This document shows, piece after piece, positions 25,037-52,076 of a stretch of 64,000 nucleotides of DNA (positions are counted from its first letter, which is position 1; each line of letters starts with the position of its first letter). The translations under genes and the position numbers were made by a program. The notes below the pieces were generated by a model. The model saw only the letters and a list, made by a program, of their open reading frames with translations, did not search any database and had not been told where the DNA came from. This DNA comes from a virus: the UHGV virus genome UHGV-0026213. One strand, written 5' to 3'.

Positions 25037-25597
25037 TTGTCGAGCTATCAATCGGCGGTACACGTTTTAATACTACACATCAACTCCGGGCGTTTCGTTA
25101 TGTTAACGGTACGTAAAGAATCTGAAATTGGTAACGATCTTTTTAATGCGCCCGAAGACTATAAAGTCGTTACCATTAACTGCGTAGGAGCGATGGGACG
25201 TGGCATTGCACTCGCGTGTCGTGAACGCTACCCCAACCTTTATCAAGATTACCGTAAGCGGTGTCGTGAAGACGAAATTAAGATTGGAAGCGTTTACGTT
25301 TACTCTGACGAAAAGTGTATCTTGCTCCCCACGAAAACACATTGGCGTTTAAAATCCCAGGTTTCTTATGTTACTGCGGGCATTACCGCACTAGCGGATT
25401 GTGCTGAGGATCTGGATACCAGCGTTGCTATCCCTCCATTGGGAATGGCAAACGGGTGGTTAGATTCCTGGGAAAGACAAGAAATCTTTTTGTGGCTTTA
25501 CAAAAAACTTGAACCGAGGAGGCAACGCTACACGTTATACTTACCTGTTAAGTTGTATCAAGAAGCAGAGTCATTAATTCCAAACTCTTTTAAATAG
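25037..25597 (+). CDS. Macro-domain protein, TARG1/DarG/Poa1p-like (predicted ADP-ribose hydrolase)
   Basis: VVTINCVGAMGRGIALACRERYP and AIPPLGMANGWLDSWE resemble the two signature segments of TARG1-type macro domains. Confidence 0.5.
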   Translation: MSSYQSAVHVLILHINSGRFVMLTVRKESEIGNDLFNAPEDYKVVTINCVGAMGRGIALACRERYPNLYQDYRKRCREDEIKIGSVYVYSDEKCILLPTKTHWRLKSQVSYVTAGITALADCAEDLDTSVAIPPLGMANGWLDSWERQEIFLWLYKKLEPRRQRYTLYLPVKLYQEAESLIPNSFK

Positions 25598-25670: not shown

Positions 25671-26396
25671 ATGTATAAATCCAACTGGAGAAACAAAATG
25701 TTTCGTATCTTCTTTCTTTTACTGGTAACACTTTTCGCGTTTAACGCACAGGCGTCAACGTCAACGCCACATTCTAAGCATCAGCGTGAGTTTGCACAAA
25801 TCCAACATCGGTTCGAAAAAGTCAGCCCGTTAATTGTGGAAATCTCACGAAAGCAGGGCGTTGATCCCAAGCTGATGATTACGCTGATTTATCGTGAATC
25901 GCGTTTTGATCCCAAGGCTTACAACAAAAGCTCACGAGCACATAGCCTGGTACAGATGCTTCCAAGTACCAAGCGTAATCTGCTAAAGCTTTATGGAAAA
26001 GAATTAGGTCTTAGTCAGAACGCTGATTTGTATAATCCGCGTAATGCTGTTTTGCTGGCTACCGCGTATGTTAAACATCTTGAGAAGGGGTTAACCAAAC
26101 GACTCAAACGCAAGCCCACCATGGCTGAAATTGCGTTAGCTTACCACTGGGGTGAAAGTGGCGCTCACACGCGAATCAAAAGCAAATCTCGAGCAGCACA
26201 ACGAGAAATGGCAGGCTTTATGAAAGACGCCGCGTTCTATAGCGCGAAAATCGATGTGCCTGTTGTTGTGGGCTCGGCCCCACGTCAGCTTGCGTTTGCG
26301 AAGAAAACACCACGTCAGATTCAACTGGCGGAAGTTAGTAGAATTTGGGATACGATAAACACGAGTTTTCCAATCAATAGAGGAGTTACCCTTTGA
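25671..26396 (+). CDS. Secreted lytic transglycosylase (SLT domain)
   Basis: Signal peptide MFRIFFLLLVTLFAFNAQA (probable true start at the internal ATG near 25698) and catalytic-region motif IYRESRFDPKAYNKSSRAHSLVQMLPST. Confidence 0.6.
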   Translation: MYKSNWRNKMFRIFFLLLVTLFAFNAQASTSTPHSKHQREFAQIQHRFEKVSPLIVEISRKQGVDPKLMITLIYRESRFDPKAYNKSSRAHSLVQMLPSTKRNLLKLYGKELGLSQNADLYNPRNAVLLATAYVKHLEKGLTKRLKRKPTMAEIALAYHWGESGAHTRIKSKSRAAQREMAGFMKDAAFYSAKIDVPVVVGSAPRQLAFAKKTPRQIQLAEVSRIWDTINTSFPINRGVTL

Positions 26397-44242: not shown

Positions 44243-44791
44243 ATGTTAACAGGAATAATAACTCGTTTTAAACAACGGTTAGAGAATAATCGTTTAAAAG
44301 CCCTCAGAGAGTCTCTGAAGCAGGAGTTCCATAAGAACACCCACAACCCCTATGTCAGAGTCTTTACCGGCTTACAATTGCTTACGTTGCCTTTAAACAT
44401 AAATGAAGAACCTTTTCGTCCCAGCCTTCGCGGTTTCCTCGAATTGCGTATTAATAACATTGATCTCGTTTATCAACGTTTGGCATTTCTCATTAATGAA
44501 TACCAACGAGCAATTAACAGGAGTTCAATCGAATGGCTACCATTACCTGACGCTTTAAATAAACGAAACGACTTGGCGGAATACCGATGGCTAGACACTT
44601 ATTTTGGGACGTCTAGTCCTGAGGTTGCCGCTTATAAGCTGGGTAAATTACTCGCGCTAATTCAACCTTATGAATCAGCGTTCCTTAAACCGGAGTCCGA
44701 CGAAGACAAAGCGCTGGTAAATCAAACTGCGCATTTATTCCGGGAGTTGGAAACGTTGATTGAACACTACCTTTTAGAACGTCCCATTTAA
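44243..44791 (+). CDS. Hypothetical protein (182 aa)
   Basis: SD TTAGGAGTGAATTATG. Confidence 0.5.
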   Translation: MLTGIITRFKQRLENNRLKALRESLKQEFHKNTHNPYVRVFTGLQLLTLPLNINEEPFRPSLRGFLELRINNIDLVYQRLAFLINEYQRAINRSSIEWLPLPDALNKRNDLAEYRWLDTYFGTSSPEVAAYKLGKLLALIQPYESAFLKPESDEDKALVNQTAHLFRELETLIEHYLLERPI

Positions 44792-44821
44792 TAAACCAGT
44801 AACCCCTTGTAACAAGGTGAT

Positions 44822-45667
44822 GTGATGGATAGCAAAAAAGTAAGTGTGGTCGTGGACGCTGAAGACGAACGTGCAGGCGGACCACTTCAAACACTATATT
44901 GGAATTATAAAGAATTGATCGGATGGAAGCCTTCGGATTATAAACTCGCCGTCGCCAAACATATTCTGTCTCCAGAATTTAAAACACGTTCAAAAGCAAC
45001 GATGGACGATCGAATACAACGTATCTCCACGAAGCTGAGTTCAGGTAACATCCCTGCACTACCTGTCGATCTTACCTGGCGAGGTTTTACAGAAGGGTTG
45101 GTGATTACCGGAGTGGAGACACTGCGGATTTGTGTAACCACTTACCGAGGACACTTCAAAACAAAAACCGTATCTGAAATTACCACACGCGTGCGTGAAG
45201 ATCTCGCTCGGGATTTGTTCGAAGATAACGACGAACGACCTAAAGAGTCTGCAACTGCGCAATTGAACCGTTATTTCCAGAACTGTGGTGAGACCGCAAA
45301 GATGATGGTGCATCCGTTATCTCGGCTAACTTGGACTATCTTCGCAAACATGAAAATGAATGCGGATTGGTGGTATCGTCTTTCCACAAACTTCGTTAAC
45401 GATCCTGCTAACTGTGAGCAAACGCCGTCGAAACGAAATGATTTGCGGCACAACATGCAGCACAATCTAAGGTTAAAAAAGAAGTTTTCCTGGAAATGGT
45501 TTATGAGGGTACTCAAGGCAATTGATGTTCGTAGCTTCGAAATCCTTCTGACCTTAAGGCGTCAGAAAGACAATAAAATCTACGAAGTTCAGGTCACGGT
45601 AAACCTTGACGAATACCAAATTGGAGACCAGAATGAAAATCGACCAAATAACCAGTCAGATAAATAA
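44822..45667 (+). CDS. Hypothetical protein (281 aa)
   Basis: GTG/ATG start region after the upstream stop. Confidence 0.45.
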   Translation: MMDSKKVSVVVDAEDERAGGPLQTLYWNYKELIGWKPSDYKLAVAKHILSPEFKTRSKATMDDRIQRISTKLSSGNIPALPVDLTWRGFTEGLVITGVETLRICVTTYRGHFKTKTVSEITTRVREDLARDLFEDNDERPKESATAQLNRYFQNCGETAKMMVHPLSRLTWTIFANMKMNADWWYRLSTNFVNDPANCEQTPSKRNDLRHNMQHNLRLKKKFSWKWFMRVLKAIDVRSFEILLTLRRQKDNKIYEVQVTVNLDEYQIGDQNENRPNNQSDK

Positions 45668-46907
45668 AGGTCAGTCAGCAATCGATAATTCCGTTAATAC
45701 GGCAAAGAACGCCGCAAACCGCGTACAAACAACGGTGGAAAATGCGGAGCGTGGTATTAAAAACACGGTCGATAGCGTCAACCGATTATCAGAACGTGCT
45801 GGTGAAACATTCAACAAACTGATTGGCGGTGGTAACGAACTGACCAGCAAAATTGGTAACCTTTTTGGCGGTAGTGATACCGCCAGTGTTGGAGGAAGTA
45901 AGACTGCGGGGAGTTCAGCCTCGGGGGTGTCGCCAGGACAAAAGGTTCCCGGTTTTGCATCTAACACCAAAGAAACGCTTCCTGTCCTCGACCCACAAAA
46001 GCGTGACGTTTCTGAACCCTTTAAGAAAAAGGATGAAGATGGCCTAAAAGCGCTAGACTACCTAAGTCCAGGCGGGATGGGGAAACTGTTAAATAAAGGG
46101 TGGGACAGCATCGGCAGCTTAACCGACTCTGTTTTATCAGGTATCGGCACCGACTTTAACTCAGTGAAAAAACGTCTCGAAGGGACGATGAACATTGCTG
46201 GGCAACTGGCTAAACTCCCCTCGGAAGTTAGTCAAGAAGTCAACGGCTTTATGTCCGAAGTCAACAGTATGCGTTATCAAATCACCTCGATCGTTGATGA
46301 CGTACAGCATACTTTCGACAGCTACAAAGACTTAGACGACTTCTTAGCCATCGATAACCTGATTAACAGCTTTAAAGGCAGCAACAGTTTCTCCACGTTA
46401 GATATTAATACCTCTTCGGCGTTGATTTATGGCCTGTCTACCAAACTGAACAGTTATGGTTTACCGGCTAAAATCGAACCGATGCTTCAAGCGATTACCG
46501 ATGCGCAAGCGAAAGAGGTACTGTACGGCGAGCTGATGATTCAGGCAGCAGCGACAGGTAATCTGGATTCAACGGAATACTATCTGGATAAACTCCAACC
46601 GGGGCAAGGGACTCAGATCGCAACCACCGTTATCCAGAACCTTATGGCTAACCTTCGGGTTGAACCCGGTGTCAGTTTCAAAACGTATGGCACTCGTCTA
46701 TTAACGTTATTTAAAGGATTAGATGCAAAATGGGACAAAGCGAAAAACATCACGCCAGAAATGACTGAACTTAAACTTTACACCTATGCAGGCGTAAATG
46801 CGATTCAGGCGCTACTAACCACCGAGAAACGTAATTACGTGATTGCTGCAGGCAGTGTAAGTTACCAGTCTACCGATAAAATCGTGGAAGACTATTTTGC
46901 AATTTAA
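45633..46907 (+). CDS. Hypothetical Ser/Gly/Thr-rich protein (about 424 aa)
   Basis: Start refined to the internal ATG with GGAGACC SD; the ORF-track start at 45606 overlaps the upstream gene. Confidence 0.45.
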   Translation: MKIDQITSQINKGQSAIDNSVNTAKNAANRVQTTVENAERGIKNTVDSVNRLSERAGETFNKLIGGGNELTSKIGNLFGGSDTASVGGSKTAGSSASGVSPGQKVPGFASNTKETLPVLDPQKRDVSEPFKKKDEDGLKALDYLSPGGMGKLLNKGWDSIGSLTDSVLSGIGTDFNSVKKRLEGTMNIAGQLAKLPSEVSQEVNGFMSEVNSMRYQITSIVDDVQHTFDSYKDLDDFLAIDNLINSFKGSNSFSTLDINTSSALIYGLSTKLNSYGLPAKIEPMLQAITDAQAKEVLYGELMIQAAATGNLDSTEYYLDKLQPGQGTQIATTVIQNLMANLRVEPGVSFKTYGTRLLTLFKGLDAKWDKAKNITPEMTELKLYTYAGVNAIQALLTTEKRNYVIAAGSVSYQSTDKIVEDYFAI

Positions 46908-47739
46908 GAGGCCGGTTATGTCCGAACCACAATTACTGCGTTCCGTATTAAAGAAGATCAAAAGCCAGGGTGAAGACAATCAAGCTTTGGCATTAACGCT
47001 GGGTTATCAACCTGGGCGAAATAATCCTAATGGATACGTTAACGCGTCAAACATCGTGCTTACTCCTGATGAGCGCTTTGTTTATGTCCTATACCTTCGT
47101 CGTTTAGGCTACGTTTGTGCGTTACCCGAAAAACTCCCTTTTACCGATGGTATCAACCATCTTAACCTTTACTCTAACGGTCGTACTACCGTAGGGAAAA
47201 TGATCAGTAACTTCTACGCGCAACCTAACGGTGCGAAATTCGACACAATTCACGGTCAGTTTTTAACGTTAGAAGGCTACTATCATTATTTAAGGATCGT
47301 AGACTATCTGTTCTACAAAGGCTACGGAATAAACGCTTTGGGTCGTTTGGAAACTGAATATCCTGACATCCGTTTATTACGCACCCTGACTGGGGCTGAA
47401 TGTATACAACGCGGTCGGCGATTAAAGGCGAGCATTTACGGGGGCACGGATTATCGGCCTGGCGAGTTTAGCGATTACGCGAACGGTGCATTTCAAAACG
47501 CATTACTGCGTAAACTCCGACTCTTGAAGTTTGACGGAAGCTGCTTAGGTAATGTGTTATCGTACTGTCATTCGATGGGATTACCGTTCTTGCATTACTA
47601 CGTTATGAACGGCCGGGTTATTACACCACCCCATTCGGAATGGCTTCCTAATCTGGTGGTTTCTATTGTAGAAAACATCGATTTTAACGACACAACGTTC
47701 GACATTACGAGCGTCAGTGAAAGTATGGGATTAATCTAA
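46897..47739 (+). CDS. NADAR/YbiA (DUF1768)-like protein, putative N-glycosidase or ADP-ribosyl hydrolase
   Basis: KMISNFYAQPNGAKFDTIHGQFLTLEGYYHYL resembles the YbiA core FSNF..P...DG..YPT.EHYFQ. Confidence 0.4.
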   Translation: MQFKRPVMSEPQLLRSVLKKIKSQGEDNQALALTLGYQPGRNNPNGYVNASNIVLTPDERFVYVLYLRRLGYVCALPEKLPFTDGINHLNLYSNGRTTVGKMISNFYAQPNGAKFDTIHGQFLTLEGYYHYLRIVDYLFYKGYGINALGRLETEYPDIRLLRTLTGAECIQRGRRLKASIYGGTDYRPGEFSDYANGAFQNALLRKLRLLKFDGSCLGNVLSYCHSMGLPFLHYYVMNGRVITPPHSEWLPNLVVSIVENIDFNDTTFDITSVSESMGLI

Positions 47740-48398
47740 TGGGATTATTCGATACCCTTGCGCAATTGGAAAAAGCGCAGGAAGAAGAGGTTATTCGCGT
47801 TGCGGGCGAATCCATTAAACGCGAAGTGGAAAAGGAATATTGCGTCTGGGTTAAACCTACGCAAGCGGGATGGGATTGGCTGCACGCACAGTCCACTAAG
47901 ATGTTCATGGACATTCTCATGCCGATAGAAGGTGGGCGTCGCCGTATCCGTATTAAAGAAGACGGTACAGCACAGCTAACGCTTAAGCGTAAATTCCTGG
48001 ACGGAAAGGTTGAAGAGAATTCGGATATCGGGATTAGTTCTGCACTCTCTTTTTACAAGGACGGTTATTTGGCGCACCTGGTGAAACGTATTCACTTAGA
48101 ACCGGGTGAATTAGCCGATAAGGGTGCTAAGCATTGGGATATTGATATTTTCACGATCACCACCGGACACCCCGCAATTGAAGTTTCGGGTGACTTTAAC
48201 GATCTCCTCACTGAGATGCGTAGCAGTACCAGCGTCGGTGACTGGGTGAAAGTTGAACTGGAAGTCGAACGTTACGAGATTGCGGATGTTCTGTCTGTGA
48301 TTCCGTTTGAGTTTGACGGCCATATTCCGGCTACGCCAAAAGATCCTGAAGACCAAGAATATCTTCGTGATTACTGGGATTCAGTTACCCGCATGTAA
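47739..48398 (+). CDS. Hypothetical protein (219 aa)
   Basis: ORF followed by a CCCTACTCC-type terminator. Confidence 0.5.
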   Translation: MGLFDTLAQLEKAQEEEVIRVAGESIKREVEKEYCVWVKPTQAGWDWLHAQSTKMFMDILMPIEGGRRRIRIKEDGTAQLTLKRKFLDGKVEENSDIGISSALSFYKDGYLAHLVKRIHLEPGELADKGAKHWDIDIFTITTGHPAIEVSGDFNDLLTEMRSSTSVGDWVKVELEVERYEIADVLSVIPFEFDGHIPATPKDPEDQEYLRDYWDSVTRM

Positions 48399-48436
48399 CA
48401 CCTACCCTACTCCTGACTAGGAGTAGGGTATTTTCA
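48399..48436 (+). terminator. Intrinsic terminator (CCCTACTCC/GGAGTAGGG family)
   Basis: CCTACCCTACTCCTGACTAGGAGTAGGG followed by TATTTTCATTTTT. Confidence 0.6.
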
Positions 48437-48460
48437 TTTTTACCCTAAAGGAGAATTATC

Positions 48461-50224: not shown

Positions 50225-50544
50225 TGACTGTGAACGACAATATAAAGAAAAAGATTGACGAAATCATAAGCGTCAGTTTAGATAGAATCGAATTAATTCC
50301 CGAAACTAAGGAGATCAAATATTACGTTCCTGCGGACGAACTATTTCCAGGTCTTCTTAGAATCTCACCAAAAAAGGTTGAAGAGGCTAAACGGCAATTC
50401 GAAGTTCGTGGCCTTAAGGTTGACATTGTTAACAAAAAACATTTCCAAGTAACGTATAGTCAGGAAAACATTATATTTAGTCCTGAACAAGCGCAACGTA
50501 ATTTAGATATTTTAACGAAACGAATGGGGAATAATAACAAATGA
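50224..50544 (+). CDS. Hypothetical protein (106 aa)
   Basis: Start overlaps the upstream stop; its stop overlaps the thyA start. Confidence 0.4.
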   Translation: MTVNDNIKKKIDEIISVSLDRIELIPETKEIKYYVPADELFPGLLRISPKKVEEAKRQFEVRGLKVDIVNKKHFQVTYSQENIIFSPEQAQRNLDILTKRMGNNNK

Positions 50545-52076
50545 AACAGTATTTAGCGTTAATGCAAGACATTCTGGATAACGGTGTTGTCAAGAAAGAC
50601 CGCACAGGTGTAGGGACACTATCTGTATTTGGTCGTCAACTACGTTTTGACCTGAAAGAAGGTTTCCCATTAGTTACTACGAAGAAGGTTCACCTGAAAA
50701 GTATCATTCATGAACTGTTGTGGTTCTTAAACGGTGACACTAACGTGAAGTACCTGCAAGAGAACGGGGTAAAAATTTGGGATTCATGGAGGCGGCCATA
50801 CGTAGGTTTTACTGGTAAAGTCATTCGCATTCCACGATTGAAAAAAGAATACGTCCCTTTTAATGGAACTTTTCCTTTGGCCATTCCTAGTTTCGATTCA
50901 ATAGAAGATAAAAAATTGGCATACGCCTGGAAACGAATGATGCATCGCTGTTATGATAAAACAGCACATAACTACCGACATTATGGTGCAAAGGGTGTAA
51001 GCGTTGCTTTACGTTGGCACGACGTAACTAATTTTGTTAACGATGTTAAAAAACTGCAAAATTGGTTTTATAAAAGTAAGAACTGGAATGACTTCGAACT
51101 CGATAAAGATTATTACGGCTCCAATCAATATTGCCCCGACGGATGTGTATGGCTCAGTAGAGGAGAAAACGTCCATCATGCGTGGGTACGCATTATTAAA
51201 GGTGACGGAACACAATACATTTGCCGAACGTATAAACATGCATCCCAATTAACTGGTTTAAGCAAAACATCCATCCACAGATTCGTTAAGGAAGGCATTA
51301 CCCCACATCTTAAAGGAAATAACAGAATCAAAGGTGTAAAAAATTGGATTATGCAAAAAGCTACTACTGAAGACTACCTCTATCGCAACGAAATTAACGA
51401 CGACGGAGATTTAGGCCCAGTCTACGGTAAACAATGGCGAGATTGGGTAGGTCCAGACGGTCGCCACCACGACCAGATCAGCAAAGTTATCCAACAACTT
51501 CGTGAAGACCCTGACTCCCGCCGTATTATCGTTAGCGCCTGGAATGTAGGTGACCTGGACGATATGGCACTTAATCCATGCCACAACTATTTCCAATTCT
51601 ACACAACAGAAATGACGTTGCTTGAACGACTGGATTGGTACGAAGCAAATGAACCGGAAAAATTTGCGAACGCGCCACTTATTAATCACGAAGATATTGA
51701 TGATGAAGAACGACTTCATGAAACTTTAGATCGTGAAGGTATCCCTCGTCGTAAGCTTTCATGTTTTTACATGATGCGGAGCAACGATTACCTACTCGGC
51801 GCGCCATTTAACGTCGCTTCGTACGCGTTGTTAACTCACATGATTGCACAGCAGTTGAACATGGTTCCAGACGAGTTGGTTTATAGTGGTGTAGATGTTC
51901 ATCTTTACTCTAACCATCTGGAGCAGGCAAAACTACAACTTACTCGCGAACCTTACCCGCTACCTAAACTGGTTATCAAACGTAAACCTGATTCCATCTT
52001 CGATTACAAATACGAAGACTTCGAATTAGTTGGTTATCAATCGCACGACACAATTAAAGCTCCCATAGCTGTCTAA
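50541..52076 (+). CDS. thyA: Thymidylate synthase with two in-frame insertions (511 aa)
   Basis: N-terminus MKQYLALMQDILDNGVVKKDRTGVGTLSVFG, and GDLGPVYGKQWR, DSRRIIVSAWNVGDLDDMALNPCH, PFNVASYALLTHMIAQQ, PLPKLVIKRKPDSIFDY all align with ThyA; catalytic Cys retained. About 205 extra aa after IWDSW and about 46 extra aa after QFYTT. Confidence 0.85.
   Translation: MKQYLALMQDILDNGVVKKDRTGVGTLSVFGRQLRFDLKEGFPLVTTKKVHLKSIIHELLWFLNGDTNVKYLQENGVKIWDSWRRPYVGFTGKVIRIPRLKKEYVPFNGTFPLAIPSFDSIEDKKLAYAWKRMMHRCYDKTAHNYRHYGAKGVSVALRWHDVTNFVNDVKKLQNWFYKSKNWNDFELDKDYYGSNQYCPDGCVWLSRGENVHHAWVRIIKGDGTQYICRTYKHASQLTGLSKTSIHRFVKEGITPHLKGNNRIKGVKNWIMQKATTEDYLYRNEINDDGDLGPVYGKQWRDWVGPDGRHHDQISKVIQQLREDPDSRRIIVSAWNVGDLDDMALNPCHNYFQFYTTEMTLLERLDWYEANEPEKFANAPLINHEDIDDEERLHETLDREGIPRRKLSCFYMMRSNDYLLGAPFNVASYALLTHMIAQQLNMVPDELVYSGVDVHLYSNHLEQAKLQLTREPYPLPKLVIKRKPDSIFDYKYEDFELVGYQSHDTIKAPIAV

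Follow-up and report, generated by a model that had tools for sequence, protein, structure and literature searches.

The closest described counterpart of the gene considered here is gp30.3 (AdfN) of phage T4, a NADAR enzyme that strips ADP-ribose (ADPr) from DarT1-modified DNA, which allows T-even phages to grow on DarTG1 hosts (PMC11825919). Two unrelated phage NADARs act likewise and none counters DarTG2, the phage NADARs tested for anti-DarT1 function being those of T4, Bas32 and Bas60 (PMC11825919); the T4 enzyme removes neither C-ADPr nor T-ADPr (PMC11125620, PMC12945103). ADPr made by DarT2 is removed by AdfM, a protein of the phage nucleus that is required despite the nuclear shell and of which Asesino gp217 is an example (PMC13309987). 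Earlier publications have covered NADAR enzymes, AdfN of phages and AdfM of chimalliviruses. Here we describe a gene at positions 46918-47739 (stop codon included) of a 64,000-nucleotide stretch of the virus genome UHGV-0026213, referred to below as the window. Its 273-residue product is a NADAR-family protein, though a very divergent one, and is most like T4 AdfN. All coordinates given are on the plus strand.

The homology is directly supported by profile-profile comparison. An exhaustive HMMER search gathered at least 373 representative clusters at 50% identity, most of them proteins of 150-190 residues that align to residues 74-255 of the window protein, and a 144-member alignment of representatives of this wider family (A3) was compared by hhalign with known NADARs. 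It matched T4 gp30.3 (95.0%, E 3.9e-8), YbiA (94.9%, E 4.4e-8) and, most strongly, a 51-member gp30.3/PF08010 alignment (97.6%, E 4.4e-12), the last over 138 columns with query residues 80-257 against T4 residues 2-152. The original prediction, made by eye, had called the product NADAR/YbiA-like, and the comparison with YbiA supports the superfamily; the protein itself is of the His type (H226, see below) and closest to T4 AdfN. Among the A3 relatives 5 of the 144 match PF08719 weakly and 12 of the 144 match PF08010 below threshold (best E 1.9e-5). Fusion partners among distant members are Macro, YAcAr/SLOG, DprA-like, DUF4326, DUF488-N3a and UDG domains, and fusion to Macro, SLOG and DUF4326 is a reported architecture of viral NADARs (PMC7824862, PMC9503650). 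Because the window protein has no PF08010 match, only those 12 relatives approach one, and a 73-residue N-terminal module is present, the family is, on its sequences, best treated as a sister clade to gp30.3 and not as a gp30.3 orthologue. This shows that the current NADAR and Phage_30_3 profile models overlook a large phage clade.

Conservation of the active site is likewise directly supported. Residues were mapped by profile and sequence alignment against T4 AdfN, YbiA and the NADAR of P. nicotianae (Pn), with relatives counted in A3. The catalytic Glu that follows the first hairpin of NADARs (Pn E43, C7 E88, T4 E36; PMC11543638, PMC11825919) aligns with E119 of the window protein (47272-47274; YbiA E48), which is kept in every one of 143 relatives, as expected of the NADAR superfamily. 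Seven residues further on, where a phosphate-binding Lys is expected (Pn K50, C7 K95, T4 K43, YbiA K55), the window protein has R126 (47293-47295). G166-R167 aligns with T4 G65 (motif G), YbiA G78-R79 and the GR of Pn AKKLGR, and K199 with YbiA K104 and the Lys of the Pn ALKLKF helix; G166 is kept in 129 of 141 relatives and K199 in 134 of 141. Directly before the last beta-hairpin lies H226-Y227-Y228 (47593-47601), in which H226 aligns with T4 AdfN H123, with E125 of both YbiA and Pn, and with the Glu/Asp of other NADAR families, and is retained in all but three of 142 relatives. A His on the last strand, replacing the Glu of YbiA or the Asp of DarG1, is what defines the phage-NADAR subfamily (PMC11543638, PMC11125620, PMC12945103), and H226 gives the window protein this feature of the gp30.3/AdfN group. 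The family also has a motif set of its own, DGxxHxNxYS, LEGY[YW], HYYV and W242.

The motif from which the NADAR idea arose, running from the SNF motif through TLEGYYHYL, is present as quoted at residues 97-125 (47206-47292); its counterpart in YbiA is the SNF...SEHYFQ core, and no other stretch of the family is so well conserved in alignments of relatives. The extent first claimed, 46897-47739, describes the open reading frame, which begins with a TTG at 46897 that overlaps the preceding gene (stop at 46907), and not the gene. We place the latter at 46918-47739 because its ATG is preceded by a ribosome-binding site (AAGAGG, 6-nt spacing) and public gene callers agree on the N-terminus MSEPQLL, the identical 273-residue product being called on public assemblies (63 collection blocks, contigs up to ~225 kb).

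Support for the fold comes from an AlphaFold2 model built on a 32-sequence alignment (predicted local distance difference test score, pLDDT, 92.1; predicted template modelling score, pTM, 0.89), in which a hairpin, a helical core and a second hairpin follow one another in the order described for NADAR (PMC9503650). A Foldseek search of BFVD placed family members at the top, followed by NADAR-annotated viral proteins (E 0.05-3). In the PDB, Foldseek found nothing significant. The catalytic domain is predicted to occupy residues 74-257 (47137-47688), and the model together with a narrower, closer-family alignment (A2) delimits a clade-specific N-terminal extension of residues 1-73 (46918-47136), composed of three helices and two short strands (pLDDT 64-96). 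Alignments to distant relatives begin at about residue 74; the extension is missing from T4 AdfN and from the stand-alone relatives of 150-190 residues, is ~55 residues longer in many Erwinia-phage relatives, and has no family match in Pfam or NCBIfam. Since the short homologue of a distant phage lies directly 3' of a DUF488-N3a gene, we considered a decayed DUF488 domain as the origin of the extension, and rejected it (hhalign probability 0.5%).

We think it probable that the window protein is an active His-type phage NADAR, that is, an ADP-ribosyl N-glycohydrolase that would cleave guanine-ADPr on nucleic acid to counter DarT1. Enzymatic activity, guanine specificity and a DarT1-type target are what we infer from AdfN and the other phage NADARs, because these act in this way and C-ADPr and T-ADPr are left untouched by the T4 enzyme; the N-terminal extension may serve in localisation or substrate handling. 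During infection the protein would bind ADPr attached to N2 of guanine in phage DNA, or possibly RNA, with E119 and H226 holding and activating the distal ribose and R126 holding the diphosphate, and cleavage of the N-glycosidic bond would reverse the modification made by host DarT1-type (or ScARP/pierisin-type) ADP-ribosyltransferases.

The same window carries a macro-domain gene (25100-25597; Pfam Macro, E 4.9e-6, above cutoff), an orthologue of chimallivirus AdfM whose product is 62% identical to Asesino gp217. Its listed reading frame opens at a TTG at 25037 and homology begins near the ATG at 25100; an SLT transglycosylase gene (25671-26396) lies 3' of it, an order also seen in Asesino gp217-gp218. 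The co-occurrence with AdfM is directly observed; the two genes lie 21 kb apart, in separate operons. The original prediction of a two-pronged strategy against DarT-like toxins is on this basis reasonable, but the labour would be divided: the macro protein would act on thymine and oppose DarT2, whereas guanine and DarT1 would fall to the NADAR. The NADAR-like protein would accordingly be expected to give a negative result in the DarT2 rescue assay then proposed. Together the two proteins would cover an SPN3US/Asesino-like (chimallivirus-type) jumbo phage against both DarTG classes.

A number of observations weigh against an active anti-DarT1 NADAR. Neither the window protein nor its 31 closest relatives matched any Pfam family at E<=10, the PF08719 search that had been suggested included; the window protein found no match in NCBIfam, PDB searches with phmmer and profile hmmsearch returned noise only, and pairwise BLASTP to E. 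coli YbiA and T4 gp30.3 gave no significant match. The original prediction took the lack of a DUF1768/NADAR profile match as a sign of coincidental resemblance, and by that reasoning the NADAR idea would fall; statistically supported homology was, however, found by hhalign where these weaker tests (PF08719, NCBIfam, PDB hmmsearch, BLASTP) found none. Even there, A2 matched gp30.3 weakly (51%, E 1.5e-4). Position 126 is Arg across the jumbo-phage clade and poorly conserved in the wider family (K33/G27/R22/L22/S16), and the K95R variant of the E. coli C7 NADAR kept its in-vitro activity and lost cell rescue (PMC11543638). The placement of E119, R126 and H226 in the active site, drawn from alignment, is a putative one. 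Neither does the fold guarantee anti-DarT1 function in vivo, because the action of AdfN-T4 is limited to a T-even context and cells gained no protection from DarT1 through YbiA or the T4 NADAR (PMC11125620, PMC11825919). Finally, the replication of related phages takes place in a protein nucleus to which DarT2 has little access (PMC13309987).

Some of these points would suit a NADAR fold that is not catalytic, for instance a binding or structural protein (a reader of ADPr or nucleic acid, or a partner of the 219-residue protein encoded next to it), or indeed a spurious fold match. Arg in place of Lys at the phosphate site, the extra N-terminal module, the tight coupling to a clade-specific downstream gene, and the negative outcome of Foldseek against PDB and of all sequence-to-profile searches can each be read in this way, and we regard it as unlikely. 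Less likely by far is a YbiA-like metabolic N-glycosidase that has no role in host conflict and acts, for instance, on reactive riboflavin-pathway intermediates or another ribosylated metabolite. Riboflavin intermediates are substrates of E. coli YbiA and its plant homologues, which are N-glycosidases (as cited in PMC11125620 and PMC9503650), and the hhalign match to YbiA is as high as 94.9%; but the last-strand residue is His and not the YbiA-type Glu, no riboflavin or NAD-salvage genes were detected by Pfam or PHROGs among ten neighbouring genes, and the family occurs in phages only, with links to domains of the Macro/SLOG type.

The main alternative, which we hold to be possible though clearly the less probable course, is an active NADAR with another substrate, such as soluble immune signals or toxic by-products derived from NAD+/ADP-ribose (cADPR-type, ADPr-1''P) or ADP-ribosylated RNA. 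Aravind's group favours such a role for most phage NADARs, and the fusions of this family to SLOG/YAcAr, DUF4326 and DUF488 suit a soluble-signal network. RNA is another nucleic acid from which NADARs remove G-ADPr (PMC12945103), and mRNA is the cytoplasm-exposed nucleic acid of a nucleus-forming phage, whose shell already largely excludes DarT2 (PMC13309987); the variable phosphate-binding position and the extra N-terminal module hint at altered substrate handling. Against this, all biochemically tested NADARs, the His-type T4 enzyme included, act on nucleic acid by hydrolysing guanine-ADPr (PMC11125620, PMC12945103), the cited NADAR literature contains no report of activity on soluble signals, and AdfM demonstrates that chimalliviruses need de-ADP-ribosylation of their DNA despite the shell (PMC13309987). 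We may also speculate, with little confidence, that the N-terminally extended, Arg-bearing NADAR represents a new counter-defence by RNA- or compartment-specific de-ADP-ribosylation. In that case the extra module might direct the protein to the phage nucleus (like AdfM), to the cytoplasm or to a different substrate, one candidate being ADP-ribosylated phage mRNA or tRNA, which a nucleus-forming phage could not shield, and the protein might cooperate with its translationally coupled 219-residue neighbour.

That neighbour (47739-48398), a member of phrog_7768 (unknown function), begins with an ATG overlapping the stop codon of the NADAR-like gene (TAATG), and because of this overlap the two genes are probably translationally coupled. 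It is clade-specific and invariably comes next after the NADAR-like gene in SPN3US/Asesino-type phages. By eye its product shows CYTH/triphosphate-tunnel (TTM)-like motifs (REVEKEY, RIRIKEDGTAQLTLKRK and VKVELEVE), a reading that found no backing in Pfam, NCBIfam, PHROGs or PDB; a single-sequence AlphaFold model had a pLDDT of 33. A strong terminator-like hairpin (48403-48430, 12-bp stem; 48403-48440 with its T-run) follows and is the probable end of a transcription unit beginning near 44243; the NADAR-like gene is the fourth of five cistrons in the plus-strand run 44243-48398. Directly upstream is the gene for a 433-residue protein of phrog_5028 (45606-46907; unknown), which has a coiled coil and a Gly/Ser-rich N-terminus, with weak PHROG matches to tail and tape-measure families. 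A homologue of this protein (22% identity, E 2e-7) is encoded two genes 5' of a short NADAR-like gene on an unrelated 182-kb phage contig (L005), with a DUF488-N3a-like gene between them, and the pairing of the two genes may be an old linkage. The downstream gene of the distant phage with the DUF488-N3a gene was compared with the 219-residue gene of the window, and no homology was found.

The window protein matches phrog_652 ("unknown function", E 4.6e-67), and its orthologues SPN3US_0224 of Salmonella phage SPN3US and Asesino gp246, both annotated hypothetical, are 44-47% identical to it, a range that also covers "hypothetical proteins" of Erwinia phages Stratton, phiEaH2 and similar phages. 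The literature counts Asesino among the nucleus-forming chimalliviruses (PMC13309987). A megablast of 3 kb against GenBank phages returned no near-identical phage, and over 43.7-52 kb the gene order follows that of SPN3US, gp220-225 as far as thymidylate synthase, and that of Asesino gp242-247. SPN3US gp223-225 find no mention in virion proteomics papers or their searchable supplements. Compared with SPN3US the NADAR-like gene is 43.7% identical, against 63.6% and 58.0% for the flanking genes, a divergence that fits an arms-race gene. Since none of the ten neighbouring genes belongs to a detectable Pfam or PHROG family of known function, there is no detectable ADP-ribosyltransferase gene near it. 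The thymidylate synthase gene (50541-52076; 511 residues; Pfam Thymidylat_synt only, spanning 2-511) carries an in-frame insertion of ~167 residues after roughly residue 90, the protein having 344 residues on three sibling metagenome contigs with an identical NADAR-like protein and 338 (1017 nt) in SPN3US; a mobile element of homing-endonuclease-like or intein-like type is one possible identity of the inserted segment. Elsewhere, the 354-kb Yersinia phage fHe-Yen9-04 (LR596615 / NC_042116) encodes both a canonical YbiA-type NADAR (g164, ~95.2 kb) and a member of the divergent family (g345, ~257.9 kb), and therefore two NADAR lineages are able to coexist in one genome.

Databases label the family of the window protein hypothetical or unknown. 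We found no statement naming the PHROG 652 family as NADAR in the literature, the supplements of Iyer et al. 2022 and the classification of de Souza & Aravind 2012 lying outside that scope, nor any mention of this family in the AdfM paper (PMC13309987). The present analysis offers a testable function for a conserved "hypothetical protein" (PHROG 652; SPN3US gp224, Asesino gp246), and covers the wider family of at least 373 clusters, which is unnamed in Pfam, NCBIfam and PHROGs. On this prediction, jumbo phages of the SPN3US/Asesino type would be equipped with an enzymatic antidote to each DarTG class, thymine-ADPr being removed by AdfM and guanine-ADPr by the NADAR; if true, this would build on recent work showing that the phage nucleus by itself fails to protect against DNA ADP-ribosylation.

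Set beside T4 gp30.3/AdfN (PF08010, Phage_30_3), the window protein has the same fold and a profile-profile match over the whole domain, both being phage-encoded, and the two share the SNF motif, the L-E-G motif of the catalytic Glu (GLEGF in T4, TLEGY here), the G..A...G(R) helix and the last-strand His (H123/H226). It differs from T4 AdfN in having only ~20% identity and no PF08010 match, in its Arg where T4 has K43, in the family's own signature (DGxxHxNxYS, HYYV, W242), and in coming from an SPN3US/Asesino-like jumbo phage and not a T4-like one; and whereas the phage NADAR has been described as "solely the core domain" (PMC12945103), here 73 residues are added at the N-terminus. From E. 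coli YbiA and PF08719 NADARs (DUF1768; structures 2B3W, 8BAU, 8BAT) it is further removed, with 13-15% identity, no PF08719 match, the additional N-terminal extension, and His where YbiA-type enzymes have Glu and DarG1-type enzymes Asp; C-ADPr is also removed by YbiA-type enzymes but was not removed by the NADAR of phage T4 (PMC12945103). The antitoxin of DarTG1, DarG1, is a NADAR of the same superfamily and shares the predicted chemistry, hydrolysis of guanine-N2 ADP-ribose, and the window protein would work as an orphan "antitoxin" like AdfN. It differs from DarG1 in that there is no detectable ADP-ribosyltransferase gene among the ten neighbours, His stands in place of Asp, the DarG1-specific N-terminal helix and beta-sheet additions are lacking, and its own N-terminal module has no detectable relation to anything. 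AdfM (PhiKZ gp104, Asesino gp217) is its functional analogue within this group of phages; it removes DarT-made ADP-ribose from DNA through a macro fold unrelated to NADAR, is thymine- and not guanine-specific, and has been shown by experiment to be nuclear and active.
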